NCBI GenBank assembly: GCA_027592135.1
Contig: JAQCIJ010000003.1
Span: forward strand, 1-63,341
DNA from: a bacterium
GTDB lineage: Bacteria > Patescibacteriota > Gracilibacteria > Peribacterales > Peribacteraceae
Direction of reading: 5' to 3'
Length of the DNA: 63,341 bases
Below are positions 49,162 through 63,160 of this stretch, one piece after another. The first letter of the stretch is position 1. Each line of letters begins with the position of its first letter. The position numbers were made by a program, and so were the translations under genes. The notes under the pieces were generated by a model, which worked only from the letters and a program-made list of their open reading frames with translations, did not search any database and was not told where the DNA came from.

Positions 49162-51075
49162 ATGGCAAACGTCGTGAGTATTCAGTTGGCCCCAGTTCTC
49201 GATCGACTTGGTGAGTCTGGTGCATCGTATGATATCAAGAGGCTAGAGCTTGCATTTTCTACTGCTCAGTCTGCTTATGGTGATAGTGTTCACTGGACAG
49301 GTAAAACTGTTTTAGATCACACGCTTGGTATCCTTGAGGAAATTTCTCCATTTGAACCCGATGAAGATACGGTGGTGGCATGTTTGCTGCATCACGTTCT
49401 CGAGCAAAAGGCGATGACACTTGTAGAGCTTGAAGAGCAATTTGGTCCAAAGGTCCGATCTCTTGTTTCGGGAATTCATTTACTTTCGCATATCACACTC
49501 GAAGGTCGTCGCAGATCTATAGAAGATCTGCGTATTATGCTCCTTTCTGTTTCGGATGATATTCGTGTACTTCTTGTGATCTTCTGTGATCGTTCGCGCT
49601 GTTTTACATCTATAAAAACAATTGAACCCGCTCGTGCAAAGCGTCTTGCACAAGACGTATTACAACTCTTTGCACCAGTTGCTGCGCGTCTTGGTATTTA
49701 CAGTCTTAAGCACAGTCTTGAGAGTGAGGCTTTTCCGGTGCTCTATACATATGATTACGATCGTATTACCGAGCAACTGGAGCGCGTGTATCGAGAACGG
49801 CCAAATTTTTTACAACAATCACGAGATATATTGAAGAAGTTTCTTGCTGACCAAGGAATAGAAGCTGAAGTGGATTCACGTGAGAAGTATGCGTACAGTA
49901 TTTTTCAGAAGATGCGCCGCAAGTCACTAACAAACATAGAGGATATTTACGATCTCTTTGCCTTGCGTGTCATTGTTAAGAATGAAGAGGATTGTTATCG
50001 CGTCCTTGGTTTATTGCATAGACTTGGGAGGCCTTTGGCGAATAGATTTAAAGATTATATTGCATTCCCAAAGCCAAACGGATATCAGAGTTTACACACT
50101 ACGCTAGCAGGATTTGCAGACCTCCCAGAAAACTGTTATATGGAGGTGCAGATTCGTACTGCCAAAATGCATCGTCAAGCGCTATTTGGTGTGGCTGCTC
50201 ACTGGAGTTATAAAGAAAATGGTGCTACTGCAAGAGCCATAGAAAATGTGCAGCTGCATTCAATGCTTCTCAGCCAAGAGTCTGTTGATGGTGAAGGTGA
50301 AGATAGAGAAACCCAATCATTTGCGGATCATATTTTCGTTCTTACTCCTCGTGGAGATGTAGTAGAGTTGCCCGAAGGGGCTACACCTCTCGACTTTGCA
50401 TTCCAGGTACATACAGATTTGGGTCTTTCGTTTCGTGGTGCCAATGTAAATGGATCTATTGTTTCTATGGATTACCAGTTGGAAAACGGAGACGTAATCG
50501 AGATTCAAAAATACTCTTCTCCGAAACCCTCTACACAATGGATGCAAAATCTTCGTATGGCGAGTAGCCGTAGTAAGCTTCGAAGGTACTTGTATGCACA
50601 AGAGCGTCCACATCTTATATCTGTTGGAAAAGAGTTACTCGCTGCAGAGTTTAAGAAGAGGGGTATATCGCCACTGACCACAGACTTATCTATATTACGA
50701 TTGTGTGATGGTGAGACACTGAGTCTTTCAAAGCGAGAGGATGTACTTATGAAGATCGGCCAAGGATCAGAACGAGCAGCTTCCCTGATTCCACGCCTCG
50801 GACTTCTTACCGAAGAGCAAAGGGCAGTAGATGAAAATGAAAAACAGCCAGAAGAAAAGACAGATCGACTCCAGAGAAATGATTCATTGATCGCTATTGA
50901 AGGAGGATTGTCTATGCCCCTTAGGTATGCTAAATGCTGCTCTCCTCAAGACTGGCCTCATGAGCATATTGCAGGAAACATCAATCGTTTTGGTGAAGTG
51001 ATGGTACACAGGTCTCCTTGTCGTATGTACACAAACACCAATCCTGATAGACGGATTGCAGTTTCTTGGAAATAG
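49162..51075 (+). CDS. relA: RelA/SpoT homolog (p)ppGpp synthetase with degenerate hydrolase, TGS and ZFD but no ACT domain
   Basis: APVA.RLG, REK..YSIF.KM, DLFALRV, RFKDYI..PK.NGYQSLH, EVQIRT, GVAAHW.YK, GATPLDFAF.VH, AKCC.P. Confidence 0.9.
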   Translation: MANVVSIQLAPVLDRLGESGASYDIKRLELAFSTAQSAYGDSVHWTGKTVLDHTLGILEEISPFEPDEDTVVACLLHHVLEQKAMTLVELEEQFGPKVRSLVSGIHLLSHITLEGRRRSIEDLRIMLLSVSDDIRVLLVIFCDRSRCFTSIKTIEPARAKRLAQDVLQLFAPVAARLGIYSLKHSLESEAFPVLYTYDYDRITEQLERVYRERPNFLQQSRDILKKFLADQGIEAEVDSREKYAYSIFQKMRRKSLTNIEDIYDLFALRVIVKNEEDCYRVLGLLHRLGRPLANRFKDYIAFPKPNGYQSLHTTLAGFADLPENCYMEVQIRTAKMHRQALFGVAAHWSYKENGATARAIENVQLHSMLLSQESVDGEGEDRETQSFADHIFVLTPRGDVVELPEGATPLDFAFQVHTDLGLSFRGANVNGSIVSMDYQLENGDVIEIQKYSSPKPSTQWMQNLRMASSRSKLRRYLYAQERPHLISVGKELLAAEFKKRGISPLTTDLSILRLCDGETLSLSKREDVLMKIGQGSERAASLIPRLGLLTEEQRAVDENEKQPEEKTDRLQRNDSLIAIEGGLSMPLRYAKCCSPQDWPHEHIAGNINRFGEVMVHRSPCRMYTNTNPDRRIAVSWK

Positions 51076-51097: not shown

Positions 51098-52375
51098 TTA
51101 CTCCAGCATTCCTGCGAGCGCTTTTTCAACCTTTTTTTGCCACTTAAGCTGCTCGTATGCTTGAGCACCTTTTTGATATGCAGACTCTACTTCTCTGCGT
51201 TGATCAGGAGTTGCTTGCCCTAAGAATCCTTCGACAATTTGATCCATTTCCTCATCAGTAATATCGATATTCTTCTCTTCGACAAGTTGCTGCATCCCAA
51301 GGCGTAGTGTAAGACGTTGACTTGCTTGTTTTTTCATATCAGCGACAACTTCTTCTGGCTTTTTTCCGGAAGCTTGCATCCATTGCTCCATGTTCATTCC
51401 TTGCGTTGATAGCTGTTGCTCGAATTCGCCAACCATTTGTCGTGTCTCTTCATCAATCAATTCTTCTGCAAGATCTACTTTAGTACATTTTGTCAGTTCA
51501 TCCATAAGGACACGTTCGCGACGATTGTTCTCGAAAGACATCTCTTGCTGAACCATAGATTCTCGCATTTGTGTTTTAAAGTGTTCTACAGAGTCTGACT
51601 GTAGTTCTTTTTTTGCAAATTCATCGGTAAGTTCTGGTGTACTGACCTCTTCGATTTTTACGACAGTGACATGGAACGTTACAGGCTTGTTTTGTAACTG
51701 CTCTGCGTGATATTTCTCGGGGAAGGTAAGGGTGAACGCTTTCTCTTCACCTTTCTTTGTTCCTTTTAGGTTATCTTCGAACCCAGGGATCAGTACTTTT
51801 GATCCAATTTCTACCTCGTGTCCTTCTGTACGGATACCGTCGATTTCTTTCTTGTCTTCATCTGTTCCGTAGAAGTTCATGGTAATACGGTCTCCTGCTT
51901 TTGCTTCGCGATCTACTTCTGTCATCACTTTGTGCTTGTCTAACATGAAGTCGATCATCTTTTGAAATTCTTTATCGTCAACTTCTGGCTTTTTCTTTTC
52001 GATCTTGATTTTATCAACACCCTTTAGGGTAATGGTTGGCTTTTCGATGAAGATGATTTTTAGTGTGAGTGGTTCACGGCTAATAGCTTCTATTCTTGGG
52101 TGAATAATAGGTTTGATGTCGTGATCGGTGATCAGCTTTTCAAACGTAGGAGGTAAGATGTGGTGAACAGTTGCCTCAAATAACTTTTGAGGGTCGATCT
52201 TCTTTTTTGCCTGATCCATAGGAACGTTTCCTTTTCGAAACCCTGGTAGCTCTATATCACGACTGAGTTCGTGCAGAGCTTTTTCCTCTGCAGGAGTGAT
52301 TTGCGCTTCGGTGAACGTAACGGTACATTCGATGCGTCCACCTTTCAATTTTTTGATATCAGGAGTGTTAGACAT
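51098..52375 (-). CDS. tig: trigger factor
   Basis: PGFRKG.VP, FKBP domain LIPGFE..L.G, FPE.YHA..L..K.V.F.V. Confidence 0.95.
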   Translation of the reverse strand: MSNTPDIKKLKGGRIECTVTFTEAQITPAEEKALHELSRDIELPGFRKGNVPMDQAKKKIDPQKLFEATVHHILPPTFEKLITDHDIKPIIHPRIEAISREPLTLKIIFIEKPTITLKGVDKIKIEKKKPEVDDKEFQKMIDFMLDKHKVMTEVDREAKAGDRITMNFYGTDEDKKEIDGIRTEGHEVEIGSKVLIPGFEDNLKGTKKGEEKAFTLTFPEKYHAEQLQNKPVTFHVTVVKIEEVSTPELTDEFAKKELQSDSVEHFKTQMRESMVQQEMSFENNRRERVLMDELTKCTKVDLAEELIDEETRQMVGEFEQQLSTQGMNMEQWMQASGKKPEEVVADMKKQASQRLTLRLGMQQLVEEKNIDITDEEMDQIVEGFLGQATPDQRREVESAYQKGAQAYEQLKWQKKVEKALAGMLE

Positions 52376-52387
52376 GGTGAAGAGGGG

Positions 52388-53281
52388 TTAATTTTTCTTC
52401 TTCCAGTACACCAAGAGAGGAGTCGCGAGGAAGAGGGAAGAGTAGGTACCAATACTGGCACCAACGATGAGTGTAAGGACGAACCATCGTACACTCTCGG
52501 ATCCAAGAATAAAGAGACACGAAAGCATGATCAGTGTAGACACAGAAGTATTTACTGAACGCATAATACTCTGGCTAAGACTCCTATCTGCTACTGATGA
52601 AAACGCTTCTTTGCGACCCTGTTCTTGGAGATTATCTCGAATACGGTCGAAGATCACGATGGTGTCGTTAACGGAGTACCCAATAATTGTGAGGAGTGCA
52701 GTAATAAAGAGCGTATCAAACTCAAATGAGGTTACCTGGCTGATCAGAATAAAGATTCCTACAGTAATAAGAACGTCATGAATCAGGGTGACAACAGCGA
52801 TAATTCCAAATCTCCACGGAGAAAGCTTTCGAGGAACTTTACGGAAGGCAAAAGCGACGTAGAGAACAATGGCGATAGCAGCGATTCCGAGTGCCCAGAA
52901 TGATCGTTTCTTTAGTGACGCACCCACAGTCGGCCCGATAGTCGTAAATTGGAGCTCTCGGATGTTGCCGAGCTCTTTTCCAAGATGCTGCTGCAATGCA
53001 ATGTGCTCTGGGTTGCTGATATCACGCATACGCATAAGTACAGTACTGTCTTTTGTAAGAGAAAGGGCTACGTTTCCTAGCGGAGTCTCACTTTCAAATG
53101 CTGCTAGAGCGTCTTCTACAGTTATCTTCTCTGTTCCTGCTGGAAGACTAATTTCCATCATTGTTCCTCCAGTGAAATCAATACTCAGTTTTGGTCCTGG
53201 TACAAACAAAACAGCTACGCTTGTAACCATAAGTGCTGTAGACAGTCCTAGGAAGAATTTTGCTGGCTTGAGAAGTGACAT
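52388..53281 (-). CDS. secF: protein translocase subunit SecF
   Basis: SIDFTGG, IGPTVG, HDV, LTIIGYSVNDTIVIFDRIR, RSVNTS, GTYSS.F.A.P. Confidence 0.95.
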   Translation of the reverse strand: MSLLKPAKFFLGLSTALMVTSVAVLFVPGPKLSIDFTGGTMMEISLPAGTEKITVEDALAAFESETPLGNVALSLTKDSTVLMRMRDISNPEHIALQQHLGKELGNIRELQFTTIGPTVGASLKKRSFWALGIAAIAIVLYVAFAFRKVPRKLSPWRFGIIAVVTLIHDVLITVGIFILISQVTSFEFDTLFITALLTIIGYSVNDTIVIFDRIRDNLQEQGRKEAFSSVADRSLSQSIMRSVNTSVSTLIMLSCLFILGSESVRWFVLTLIVGASIGTYSSLFLATPLLVYWKKKN

Positions 53282-53330
53282 GAGAGTTACGAGTTACGAG
53301 TTACGAGAAAAATTCTGATTCAGTATCTAG

Positions 53331-54656
53331 TTATTCTCCAAGGATTTCCAGTAGTTGGAGGGGATTTTTAGAGGTTTTTAGAGAGACCTTTCGTATGGTT
53401 CCTTCGTGCTTTGAGGTGACAGTAAGCGTTCCTGTGCCAAATCTGCTATGAATATCTTTTTGTGTGATCGCGAGATAGGGAAGGATTTCGTCGATCTTTG
53501 AGAGATCTATTACTATTTTTGTAGAGTAGAGCACTTCTTCTATCCTCTGATGAGCAATAGCATGGGTAATTGCTGCCGCAGTAGAGCTCAGAAGATACGC
53601 ACTCCCCCTCGTTGCAGTGACAAGGCCTCTTTTTCTCCCCGAAAGCATGGTACTGCGAATGAGCCAACCATTTGTGGTGTATTGGTTTCGCTCTAGCATA
53701 GTGTCGTCATGTCGAATATCAATAGAGCTAAACCGTTTGTCGAGAATACGTTTTGTAATTGTCGATGAAGGCAGAGAGCTTTCGTACGCTGTATGCACTC
53801 TATCAAGTATGGTTTGTAGTTGGATAGTGTCATCCATCGATCCATCAATTAGGACATTAAGTAGAGATCCTGAACTATCAATTTGGATAGTGGAAGGTTG
53901 CTCCAGTAATGGAAGAAGGTCGTAACGAAAGCTTACGCGCTCTCCAAGTGTGGTGAGTGTTGTAGCCAGCACTCCTTCGAGAATTACTGCATCGTCTTCC
54001 GGTAGATTGTTCATTAGTGTATAAAAAGACCCCGCGAAGTTCCTTCCTGAAGCTCTTAGAAAAGCATCAGGCATGTTTGGAATTCTCATTGGGGTATTGG
54101 CAAACCCCGATCGATCTTGTGTGTGTGCGATATGTATTGCGTCACCATCGTACGTGACTGCAATGGCATTGCTGTCTTCTACAAGTAGCGCTTTACTTAT
54201 GCGAGAAAGTATATTTACACTTTGCCGTAGAGAAGAAGAGGGGAGGTATGTCCATGGTGTACCGTACCCCTGCTCTATCGCAAGCTTTCTAAATGTCGTA
54301 TCAGTGTTCAGGGAGTCTTGTTGATGATGCACTTGTTGCAGCACTTCTGGGCTGCTTGCATTGAGAGCATACGGGCTCGTCGGATCTGCAGAGAATATCA
54401 CAGCATCGAAACTTTCGAAGATCGCTATTGCTTGAGTATCTGTGGGTATCTGCTCTTCGATAAATGGGAATTGCCTGAGGGAATGCTCTGTTGGATGAAA
54501 GATAACCGCATGCACTCCCTCTTTTGGTAGGAAGTCAGCAGGGCCTTTTCCGAGTAAATTTACGTTCCATATAGCGCCAAAAAGACCCGCCACTATGAGG
54601 GCACTTGCAACCATTGCTGCAACAATCAAAATAGCTGTACGAAGCGAATGATTCAT
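53331..54656 (-). CDS. hypothetical membrane-anchored protein
   Basis: N-terminal TM helix and 441-aa open frame; TATGCT-N6-ATG. Confidence 0.7.
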   Translation of the reverse strand: MNHSLRTAILIVAAMVASALIVAGLFGAIWNVNLLGKGPADFLPKEGVHAVIFHPTEHSLRQFPFIEEQIPTDTQAIAIFESFDAVIFSADPTSPYALNASSPEVLQQVHHQQDSLNTDTTFRKLAIEQGYGTPWTYLPSSSLRQSVNILSRISKALLVEDSNAIAVTYDGDAIHIAHTQDRSGFANTPMRIPNMPDAFLRASGRNFAGSFYTLMNNLPEDDAVILEGVLATTLTTLGERVSFRYDLLPLLEQPSTIQIDSSGSLLNVLIDGSMDDTIQLQTILDRVHTAYESSLPSSTITKRILDKRFSSIDIRHDDTMLERNQYTTNGWLIRSTMLSGRKRGLVTATRGSAYLLSSTAAAITHAIAHQRIEEVLYSTKIVIDLSKIDEILPYLAITQKDIHSRFGTGTLTVTSKHEGTIRKVSLKTSKNPLQLLEILGE

Positions 54657-54688
54657 AGAATCAGCATAGCGTATTGCTAGGCCTCTGC

Positions 54689-55184
54689 TGAGGGGAGTGA
54701 ATAATAAATGTATTCATAACATCATCTTGTCGTACGTCCATTTCAATTGATTGCAGGTTTCGCTTATGCCACGTACAATAATCTGATTTGCTTCAAAAGG
54801 CGAATCAGACACAAAAACAGATCATTTACAACACACCAATACAAACAGAAACAAGGCCCCGGGAGGGCACTGCGCATGGACAACCGTGCTCACTGCCCTC
54901 TCTGCTCTGTGATGTCGTCTTATAGATGAGAGGTTGCTCTATAAGATGCTTCCCCTAATTCTCTATGGTTCCCTTAGCTCACGCTTTGTCTTGGAGTCTG
55001 TTCCGGAGGACTCGTCGGGTAGCGAGTATAAACGAGATACCGTAACAAGGCAGGAGTTCGAGATTACCTCATCTCACTATATCTTTCTTAGGCTCGTGAC
55101 TCCCTTCACTTAGAATAGTTACAGATAGCTACCGAAAGATTCAATGCAAAGAAGGCCAGAGTGTATAAGTTCTGGTCTTTTTTG
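54689..55184 (+). ncRNA. candidate large multi-domain structured RNA, family unknown
   Basis: Long-range closing helix, at least eight internal helices with plus-strand G-U pairs, and its own terminator. Confidence 0.55.
55148..55184 (+). terminator. intrinsic terminator, possibly bidirectional
   Basis: AAAGAAGGCCAGA-GTGTATAAGT-TCTGGTCTTTTTT. Confidence 0.8.
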
Positions 55185-55234
55185 TTTTATATACATGCGG
55201 GTGGGAACACCTGCGCTGCGAGAAAAAATATTTT

Positions 55235-56491
55235 TTACAACGCCAACAATTTCTCCTTCACCCCTGGAAGCGAGGGATTCATCTCGAGTGCTTTTTGCCA
55301 TGCTGCTTTTGCTTCGGATGTTTTTTCGAGTTGGGCAGCGATTGTTCCGAGCAGTTCAAAACTGCGTGCGTTGTCTGGCCATTTTTCTGTAGCAAGTTTT
55401 GCTTTAGCGAGGGCTGCTTCTGCTTGTCCAAGTGCAGCTGCTGCGGTCACATACCCCTGGAAGCTTTCGAAGGTCGCATCTGGGTCATTGGTTAATGCAT
55501 CGTATTGATCGAGTGCGAGTCCTGCGTTGCCAATTTCTAATGCATAGCGTGCTATAAGTCTGCGCACTTCACCTTGTGGAGCAAAACCGTTTGTCAGTGC
55601 ATATTCGAAGAATGTAATAGCATTTTGATATTCATGTAGAGCTGCGTACGACCTTGCAAGGAAGTATTGAATCTCTGGCTTTTGTGGATCGAGGGAATAC
55701 GCCTGCTCGAGAGATGCAAGTGCTTGCTCTGGCCTCTCAGATGTAAGTTCGCAGTATCCTTGTACTACCCAGGCGTCACGATAGTCTTCTTTAGAAGATG
55801 TGACCTGAATAAGAAGTGGGAGAGCCAATTCACATTCTTGTACTTGGGCTAATGCACGGGAGAGCAGAGTGATCAGATGAATATCTGTACCACTAGGGAA
55901 CAGGGCAAATTCATCATAGGCTGCCTGGAGTGTTCGGGCATAACTTCGCAGAACTGGATCCCATCCATTAGTGGTAAGAGCGATTTCCTGCATTGCTCGA
56001 TCGTGACTTCCTTGGATAAGAGCGAGCAGCGCAAGCCCGTAGTGTTTTTGTGGAGAATCTTCTGCACTATCTAACACCTTTTTTGCTTCGACTAATTCTC
56101 CAGATCGCAGTTGAATAATCACTTCAATAAGTAGTATATCTTCTGGTCTGGCTCCTGCACTTTTCATCTGTTTTACTGTAGAACGAATTCCTTTGATGTC
56201 TCTCCGTTGCAGTTGTGCCTTCGCAAGTTTACGCAGTGCCACTAAGCCACCTTCACTTTTTACAGCTTTTTGATATTGTTCCTCGGCCTCCGACCATTCT
56301 CCACGCAGAGCAAATATATCTCCTTGTCGTAAGTGCAGTAACGAAGCATCTCCATGATCCATAGGAATAGTATTTATTATAGGGATAGGTGCACCCAGTA
56401 GATCTGTATCCACAAATTGTTGCCCTCCAAGCTGCAGAGTGGACTGTGTTATCTGCCACCAGAGGAATGCTATCAAGAGACCAGCACACAT
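55235..56491 (-). CDS. tetratricopeptide repeat protein with N-terminal anchor
   Basis: Repeated A...Y..A..L.P TPR patterns; YRDAW...GY. Confidence 0.85.
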   Translation of the reverse strand: MCAGLLIAFLWWQITQSTLQLGGQQFVDTDLLGAPIPIINTIPMDHGDASLLHLRQGDIFALRGEWSEAEEQYQKAVKSEGGLVALRKLAKAQLQRRDIKGIRSTVKQMKSAGARPEDILLIEVIIQLRSGELVEAKKVLDSAEDSPQKHYGLALLALIQGSHDRAMQEIALTTNGWDPVLRSYARTLQAAYDEFALFPSGTDIHLITLLSRALAQVQECELALPLLIQVTSSKEDYRDAWVVQGYCELTSERPEQALASLEQAYSLDPQKPEIQYFLARSYAALHEYQNAITFFEYALTNGFAPQGEVRRLIARYALEIGNAGLALDQYDALTNDPDATFESFQGYVTAAAALGQAEAALAKAKLATEKWPDNARSFELLGTIAAQLEKTSEAKAAWQKALEMNPSLPGVKEKLLAL

Positions 56492-62530: not shown

Positions 62531-63160
62531 GTAAACCACCGGCTCTGCCGGTGAGACTCCACGGTGTTCTACAATTCCCGCGTTTGCTACTCTTGTAACG
62601 GGGAAAGCCCTCTATCGAAGGGGTATTTCTTTACCTCTTTTTTTCTATGTCTAGCACGACTACCTCTCAATCTCACGTGAAGTGGGATTGTATCTATCAC
62701 ATTGTGATCGTACCCAAATACAGAAAGAAACACTTGTATGGCCAAGTACGACAACGCCTCAGAGAAATCATCCGTGAGCTTCTACGACAGAAGAGCATTG
62801 AGATGATAGAAGGTGCTGTCAAACCCGACCATGTGCATATGGTACTCCGTATCCCACCACGATTCAGCGTGTCTACAATCGTAGGTTTTCTCAAGGGCAA
62901 GAGTGCCATTCGTCTACACAACGAGTTCTCCAAAAAGAAATCTGTGACACAAAAATCCTTCTGGGCTCGTGGTTACTTTGTCCGAACCATAGGAATCGAT
63001 CAACAAATGGTTGAAGAATATGTTCGAAAGCAAACAGAAGAAGACAAACGTCAGGACAACAACCCTCAGATGGAGTTCAAATGGAATTAACCTCTGAGTC
63101 TCTTTAGCAACCCCCTTCTAGGGGGTTTCCCCAAATTACCTGCTCTGCAGGTAGTTATTG
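62531..63160 (+). mobile_element. IS200/IS605 family element, tnpA only
   Basis: End hairpins CACCGGC-TCT-GCCGGTG (left) and TACCTGC-TCT-GCAGGTA (right) flank tnpA. Confidence 0.9.
62647..63090 (+). CDS. tnpA: IS200 Y1 HUH transposase
   Basis: YHIV.VPKYRKK, DHVHM (HUH), LKGKS, FWARGYFV, catalytic Y in EEYVRKQ. Confidence 0.96.
   Translation: MSSTTTSQSHVKWDCIYHIVIVPKYRKKHLYGQVRQRLREIIRELLRQKSIEMIEGAVKPDHVHMVLRIPPRFSVSTIVGFLKGKSAIRLHNEFSKKKSVTQKSFWARGYFVRTIGIDQQMVEEYVRKQTEEDKRQDNNPQMEFKWN

Follow-up and report, generated by a model that had tools for sequence, protein, structure and literature searches.

Evidence for a large structured RNA with a doubly knotted core in Peribacteraceae genomes

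Locus and limits of the RNA gene

We examined a window of 63,341 nt, by which we mean the whole stretch of DNA presented here, in which two minus-strand open reading frames (53331-54656 and 55235-56491) flank the 578-nt gap at 54657-55234 that an earlier note on this DNA had singled out. The first frame encodes a 441 aa protein with no Pfam or NCBIfam match and the second a 418 aa TPR protein. The 441-aa gene stands first in a minus-strand row at 51098-54656 that continues with secF and then the trigger factor gene (tig); a RelA/SpoT gene lies at 49162-51075 (+), and an IS200/IS605-family transposase (TnpA) gene at 62647-63090 (+), near the contig end. The TPR protein is single-copy and unusually conserved, with 38-61% identity across the Peribacteraceae genomes of our class sample and 84-88% among the closest relatives found; the 441-aa neighbour is only 22-50% identical.

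Stops or frame changes break the three small plus-strand ORFs in the gap (45-60 aa) in most or all of six same-genus orthologues, in agreement with the note, which had seen no credible ORF, and since these frames are not kept we rejected a protein-coding reading of the gap. On the plus strand, the region 54680-55190 folds far better than its shuffled versions (z = -3.95, 0/100 shuffles as good), against z = -0.56 on the minus strand, and the contrast persists within the refined limits 54785-55188 (z = -3.68, again with 0/100 shuffles as good, and +0.17 on the minus strand); the plus polarity read by the note from its G-U pairs is thus borne out. Conservation in alignment A1, made of seven orthologues from the same genus (our copy and six others), begins near 54703 and stops at the terminator. 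The features that delimit the gene are the following:

54751..54779, plus strand: promoter-like element, with -35 hexamer TTGCAG at 54751-56, a variable 17-nt spacer and -10 hexamer TACAAT at 54774-79
54785..55188, plus strand: predicted whole transcript of ~404 nt, running from the promoter pattern to the terminator and supported by the fold z-scores
55146..55188, plus strand: intrinsic terminator, a 17-pair stem (55146-55185) preceded by an A/C-rich stretch and followed by a T run

The two hexamers are conserved in A1 and the spacer between them is not; conserved hexamers on either side of an unconserved spacer of fixed length argue for a promoter rather than a helix. The pattern TTGNNN-N16-19-TANNNT-N4-8-GATTT[GA] precedes the core at 46 of 53 homologous loci, and the conserved GAUUUGC begins at 54785 in the window copy, so that we place the probable transcription start at ~54785. 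A generic scan for sigma-70 promoters flagged no site in the region, having missed 54751-54779 because the -35 matches in only three of six letters. The terminator proposed in the note was recovered by our scan on the plus strand (55146-55185), and it is kept both in the genus orthologues of A1 and across the family Peribacteraceae. From these elements we infer that the gene spans ~54785-55188 (+), about 404 nt, both ends being placed from sequence, and these limits replace the 54689-55184 given in the note. In homologues the distance between the GATTTG motif and the T run is about 360-800 nt, and the differences in length fall almost wholly within the 5' region.

The segment 54703-54725, which separates the RNA promoter from the divergent 441-aa gene, is almost invariant in 7/7 genus orthologues (A1) and partly palindromic (TGAATA/TATTCA); it looks like a control site acting at the DNA level or a promoter of the minus-strand operon.

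A knotted core and its flanking domains

Covariation among homologues shows that the ~180-nt core of the RNA combines five nested helices with two tertiary pairings, one forming an H-type pseudoknot and the other joining two loops. RNAalifold applied to 20 sequences gave 39 pairs, with compensatory changes in 20, and extension by hand brought the core (54896-55077) to 58 base pairs. We judged these on two alignments: A3, a MAFFT alignment of 21 sequences fitted to no structure, and A4, comprising 51 sequences fitted to the covariance model, from which helix S2 and the loop-loop helix are absent. The elements of the core are the following:

54899..54910 with 55045..55056, plus strand: long-range helix H1, 94% of cells paired, with double changes
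54914..54949, plus strand: hairpin H2, double changes at 7/8 stem pairs (A4)
54930-54934 (GAGGU) with 55066-55070 (ACCUC), plus strand: loop-loop pairing of the H2 loop with the H6 loop, 89-90% of cells paired
54960-64 with 55005-09, plus strand: helix H3, enclosing H4 and H5, 97-99% paired, double changes at 3-5/5 pairs
54967-72 with 54993-98, plus strand: helix H4, with many double changes; 62-86% paired (range for H4 and H5), in a part where the alignment is poorer
54973-88, plus strand: hairpin H5, with many double changes; pairing range and poorer alignment as for H4
55011..55041, plus strand: H-type pseudoknot formed by S1 and S2, with an A-rich third loop at 55027-37
55011-15 with 55022-26, plus strand: S1, 98-99% paired, both sides changing in distant homologues
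55018-21 with 55038-41, plus strand: S2, crossing S1, 98.5-100% paired
55060..55075, plus strand: hairpin H6, stem 99.6-100% paired, double changes at 5/5 pairs (A4) and 3/5 (A3)

Across all 58 pairs, A3 has 90.0% of its cells paired; shuffles give 79.5% and slid partners 44-49%, and 0/500 shuffles reach the observed value, a significance that is overstated because the sequences are kin. The corresponding figures for A4 are 89.6%, 77.9% and 40-51%, and double changes are found at 29/58 pairs in A3 and 45/58 in A4; a measure of further pair types on A3 did not rise above shuffles (132/500). Three pairs of H1 carry double changes (UA/AU, GC/AU and CG/UA). S2 and the loop-loop helix, both outside the search model, are 89-100% paired: one S2 pair occurs in A4 as UA in 25 sequences, AU in 12 and CG in 9, and the loop-loop helix varies by G-C to A-U and U-A to C-G changes. 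The junction letters of the core are invariant.

The helices drawn in the note fared unevenly: four are kept by covariation, and the others lie outside the RNA or compete with covarying helices. TCTGATTTGCTT/AGGCGAATCAGA survives as the 5'-terminal hairpin, and GGGAGGGCA../..TGCCCTCTC, GTCTTATAG/CTATAAGAT and GAGAT/ATCTC are each sustained by covariation, so that the 5' hairpin, P2, H2, H6 and the terminator are retained from that first description. The helix thought to close the molecule (54689-98/55099-108) does consist of letters that can pair, but its 5' arm lies upstream of the promoter and differs in 6/6 orthologues (A1); no 420-nt outer helix closes the RNA, and an architecture built on a single closing helix around 420 nt is unsupported. 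TGAATA/TATTCA and GTACGT/ACGTAC also fall in the promoter or ahead of it, and GTACGT/ACGTAC has an unconserved first arm; GAGTCT/GGACTC and TCACG/CGTGA clash with the covarying pairings 54967-72/54993-98, 54960-64/55005-09 and 55011-15/55022-26. TTTGTCTTG/CAAGGCAGG competes with the better-supported H1 (54899-54910/55045-55056): in the group of paralogues described below, H1 is kept by double changes and the TTTGTCTTG/CAAGGCAGG pairing breaks.

The core is flanked on both sides by further predicted structure:

54785..54806, plus strand: 5'-terminal hairpin opening with the conserved GAUUUGC; GATTT[GA] follows the -10 hexamer in 46/53 loci
54807..54858, plus strand: A/C-rich, G-poor linker, predicted to be single-stranded
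54861..54902, plus strand: hairpin P2 (GGGAGGGCA... / ...UGCCCUCUC), abutting the core, with compensatory changes in A1
55081..55140, plus strand: 3' domain of three helices, P7-P8-P9, from single-sequence folds and the pairing of P8
55081-87 with 55134-40, plus strand: P7, a shape that recurs among homologues with different letters
55091-94 with 55127-30, plus strand: P8, paired in 36-40 of 41 homologues, with GC, GU and AU variants
55096-100 with 55118-22, plus strand: hairpin P9, from single-sequence folds

In most of the loci with the promoter pattern the first 40 nt fold as a terminal hairpin whose partner letters vary. P2 is kept with compensatory changes among the seven genus orthologues and is present in both the MFE and the centroid folds. 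The A/C-rich linker that the note had placed at 54810-54854 is real (A26 C12 T5 G2), and its A+C richness is a trait of the family: across 46 homologues, A and C make up a median of 75% of the letters predicted to be unpaired in the 5' regions, so that composition is conserved where the sequence and length of the linker are not. The idea that the linker serves as a template finds no support, since we saw no conserved gene, whatever its type, next to the RNA. At the 3' end, single-sequence folds of homologues with the GAUAGC motif mostly give the same P7-P8-P9 shape with different letters in P7; P7 and P9 were judged by such per-sequence folds, and their low counts on MAFFT columns reflect misalignment.

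The 5' region ranges from ~66 to ~517 nt among homologues. We considered whether an upstream strand might compete for the 5' strand of H1 and act as a structural switch, and rejected this, given that above-shuffle complementarity occurs in only 3/49 homologues, the median for the upstream strand being -8.7 kcal/mol (equal to the control), where the true H1 partner gave -15.4.

Distribution, neighbourhood and known RNA families

A DNA search found matches in 20 of 61 related genomes, including 7/7 of the same genus. A 182-position covariance model built from the core (54896-55077) extended the family to 141 of 151 Peribacteraceae genomes and 81 of 84 genera, with 1-3 matches in each genome, and to 117 of the 123 Peribacteraceae genomes that are at least 90% complete. 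Within the class sample, the first model matched all 15 Peribacteraceae genomes and 3/135 others, and a second one, with distant matches added, found weak relatives in 6/135 other class genomes. The phylum sample yielded matches in Peribacteraceae genomes only, with 0/5 in other class genomes and 0/143 in genomes from other classes. A shortened calibration underlies the model E-values, and with strict filters these counts may miss weak relatives.

Our genome carries a paralogue on another contig (G000:C34:12723-12904), a core copy 76% identical by DNA search (G000:C34:12778-12903), which lies in an ORF-free gap of ~820 nt and has its own promoter pattern and terminator. The two paralogues differ in their loop pairs, GAGGU/ACCUC in one and AGGC/GCCU in the other. 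In at least 10 genomes from several genera (G005, G007, G017, G018, G095, G106, G111, G118, G031 and G123), two copies face each other on one contig, 24-33 kb apart; those of our genome are on different contigs, C52 and C34. In genome G052, which belongs to a different family of the class, a distant homologue is present as two copies ~91% identical over ~800 nt (L077, on the reverse strand at ~760-1000, and L078), and its 5' region contains about five tandem units of ~46 nt each.

Copies of the window type usually lie, in many genera of Peribacteraceae, between the 441-aa gene and the TPR gene, and those of the paralogue type between genes for an S-layer-homology protein and a 191-aa secreted protein; in our genome a 191-aa gene lies downstream of the paralogue on the same strand. 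The distant homologues outside Peribacteraceae have unrelated neighbours (photolyase, Lgt, DUF881, racemase, serine dehydratase), and we found no neighbour that they share. The lack of neighbour conservation outside Peribacteraceae fits action in trans, and to judge from its genomic surroundings the gene looks autonomous and trans-acting. The TPR protein was considered as a partner of the RNA and rejected: it is class-wide (117/151 genomes), not specific to genomes with the RNA, and not adjacent in distant homologues. A mobile or viral origin was likewise rejected. Phage and plasmid collections yielded no relative, and the one viral contig that fits a 20-letter pattern does not fit the model, its match lying within coding sequence.

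The only sequencing runs that contain part of the stretch are RNA libraries, with small shares of its words. Six contigs of 160-250 nt from four runs in four studies, placed at 80% likeness, cover 54897-55141 at 90-95% likeness, from which we take them to be a relative's version of the core. They give a weak hint of expression that carries no strand, ends or level, and such libraries can contain DNA; no such contig fell on the flanking genes, which is no evidence either way, because the contigs come from relatives whose flanks may be too divergent to be placed.

The note had seen no hallmark of tmRNA, RNase P RNA, SRP RNA or an intron, and searches of known families agree. At gathering thresholds, the 4227 models of Rfam 15 match only two tRNAs in the whole window, and ARAGORN likewise reports two tRNAs and no tmRNA there. 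The cmscan comparison proposed in the note thus gave no family for the RNA region: at E <= 10, 54500-55400 has three chance-level matches only, the best (E = 1.3) on the terminator, and 11 homologous loci gave no match at E <= 0.5. RNase P RNA (RF00010; G000:C8:1326-1722, 131 bits, with no match in the window) and tmRNA (RF00023; G000:C38:21432-21850, 75 bits) are encoded elsewhere in the genome, and the RNA described here has neither a tRNA-like end nor a tag reading frame. Literature searches, which included parts of the Peribacteria genome paper (PMC4736985), turned up no description of such an RNA. As far as Rfam and these searches reach, the family is new.

The bacterial SRP RNA model RF00169 has no match in our genome at E <= 10, nor RF01854 at E <= 1, and RF00169 is found in 0/151 class genomes; 6S RNA (RF00013) has no match in our genome at E <= 1. 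This absence of SRP RNA, together with the adjacency of secF and tig, prompted us to consider the RNA as SRP RNA, an identity that we rejected because SRP54-type GTPases are missing as well: neither the SRP54 M domain (PF02978) nor the SRP54 GTPase domain (PF00448) was found in the genome (98% complete), and 14/14 control genomes matched. In the class sample, 3/151 genomes have a match above the Pfam cut-off; these and the matches below it reach at most ~24 bits and extend no further than the initial part of the profile, and we read them as likeness of the nucleotide-binding loop. The phylum sample has an SRP54 match at E <= 1e-10 in 0/151 genomes. Many CPR bacteria lack two SRP subunits according to PMC8080830, so that the absence of SRP is at least partly known already. 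The RNA and the absence of SRP RNA do not go together, the RNA being confined to Peribacteraceae and a few relatives.

Candidate modes of action and significance

We consider it very probable that the gap holds a member of a real, independent family of structured non-coding RNA. The note's "undescribed large ncRNA" is supported by covariation, by the promoter pattern and terminator, by near-universality in the family and by the lack of an Rfam match or a literature description; the locus has what is expected of an independent structured RNA gene, namely a promoter (recognised by conservation only), a terminator, covariation and no conserved ORF.

The function is a separate question. The anatomy of the RNA and its near-universal retention in very small genomes point to a stable folded particle working through its shape, and it would then act as such a particle, with no need to pair with a target over its length. 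The working part would be the compact, knotted core, which would most likely bind one or more conserved proteins, forming an RNA-protein scaffold in the manner of OLE RNA; the 5' hairpin and the terminator hairpin may shield the RNA ends, and the A/C-rich linkers and variable 5' hairpin modules could be flexible spacers or additional platforms for binding. We identified no partner protein, and none stays adjacent beyond Peribacteraceae. Protein binding as the mode of action is a tentative proposal. Taken whole, the statement that this is an independent gene for a stable, trans-acting, structured Peribacteraceae RNA working as a protein-binding scaffold falls, in our judgement, just short of an even chance. 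We rank the scaffold first, then a ribozyme, then a sponge for protein and lastly an RNA-only oligomer; present data do not tell a protein scaffold apart from catalysis or from RNA-only assembly.

Core complexity of the kind seen here is typical of large ribozymes, and the doubly knotted conserved core might itself be a catalytic centre, processing its own transcript or acting on other RNA. In it, helices meet at a multi-way junction, the H-type pseudoknot has a third loop rich in A, and two distant loops pair with each other; its junction letters are invariant, and the RNA is near-universal in small genomes of 1.0-1.4 Mb. Against this, no Rfam ribozyme family was matched, we identified neither a cleavage site nor a substrate or processing signal, and the genome already has RNase P RNA; we regard catalysis as unlikely.

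The 5' hairpin modules and A/C-rich strands might instead titrate an RNA-binding protein, making the RNA a sponge or regulator like CsrB or CrcZ, and the unpaired parts of the 5' region do stay at ~75% A+C while its length goes from ~66 to ~517 nt, the homologue with ~five tandem units of ~46 nt offering an example of such modularity. RNAs of the CsrB/RsmZ/CrcZ type, however, carry many copies of a short protein-binding motif and no complex conserved core. The Peribacteraceae RNA resembles them in its variable-length modular region, its hairpins and its single strands of biased composition, but its best-conserved part is the knotted 3' core and not the linkers, homologues have no repeated short binding motif in common, and no candidate protein was identified, all of which leaves titration with a small likelihood.

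If the H2-loop/H6-loop pairing formed between molecules, the RNA could assemble by itself into dimers or larger homo-oligomers. The pairing covaries, and covariation is blind to whether a contact is intra- or intermolecular; the differing loop pairs of the two paralogues in our genome would keep the two apart. Oligomers have been reported for the large bacterial RNAs OLE, ROOL and GOLLD (PMC12286853). The two loops, however, are ~135 nt apart on either side of H1, which makes a contact within one molecule the simpler account, and we think an RNA-only assembly distinctly improbable.

Two further explanations have little left to stand on. A cis-acting leader, attenuator or antisense regulator of the 441-aa/secF/tig operon or of the TPR gene would be in keeping with the two flanking genes shared by many genera of Peribacteraceae, and the same-strand 191-aa gene follows the paralogue; a riboswitch or cis leader, however, lies on the same strand as, and upstream of, the gene it controls, and here both window neighbours are encoded on the opposite strand, clear of the RNA, which has its own promoter pattern and terminator and keeps unrelated company in distant homologues, so that this role is very improbable. 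Hardly credible at all is a very divergent SRP RNA, 6S RNA, RNase P RNA or tmRNA: SRP RNA and 6S RNA were not found in the genome, which leaves two slots formally empty, but neither the region (E <= 10) nor the 11 loci (E <= 0.5) gave a match, RNase P RNA and tmRNA are accounted for elsewhere, an SRP RNA would have no partner given that the SRP54 components were not found, the covarying structure is branched and knotted and not the rod of 6S RNA, and there are 1-3 copies per genome.

To our knowledge, very few large bacterial RNAs have complex tertiary folds, roughly rRNA, RNase P RNA, tmRNA, group I and II introns, OLE, ROOL, GOLLD and raiA. Each known large bacterial RNA has taught new RNA biology. 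Like tmRNA and RNase P RNA, the Peribacteraceae RNA comes from an independent gene bounded by a promoter and a terminator, contains several pseudoknots and is near-universal in its lineage; it differs in lacking a tRNA-like end or tag frame, and both of these RNAs are encoded elsewhere in the genome. OLE, the ornate large extremophilic RNA, is known for the properties of a folded particle, and ROOL and GOLLD are often phage- or tRNA-associated. Like OLE, the RNA is large (hundreds of nt), ornate, lineage-restricted, conserved and chromosomal, and would form a folded particle; unlike OLE, it lives in another host lineage (the candidate phyla radiation), has no Rfam match to OLE and no linked partner genes, and often occurs in 2-3 copies per genome. 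Its likeness to ROOL and GOLLD is that of large multi-domain orphan RNAs, in which loop-loop contacts matter through oligomers (PMC12286853), and it is set apart from them by the lack of an Rfam match and of any phage, plasmid or viral-contig relative in our searches, and by vertical, near-universal occurrence within one family.

An RNA of 360-800 nt with at least two pseudoknots is near-universal in a whole family whose genomes measure ~1-1.5 Mb, where non-coding DNA is scarce. It could be the core of a new Peribacteria-specific machine, a new class of large functional RNA that is either catalytic or forms RNA-only oligomers via the H2 and H6 loops, which we hold to be the less likely outcome, if one with a real chance; were it true, 1-3 copies would be kept in ~1.1 Mb genomes because the cell depends on the RNA. 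The RNA is a good target for structure determination, and its covariance model provides an annotation marker for the lineage. The hosts are uncultured bacteria in which many genes lack an explanation, and a conserved RNA that is probably abundant in them would give a handle on lineage-specific biology.
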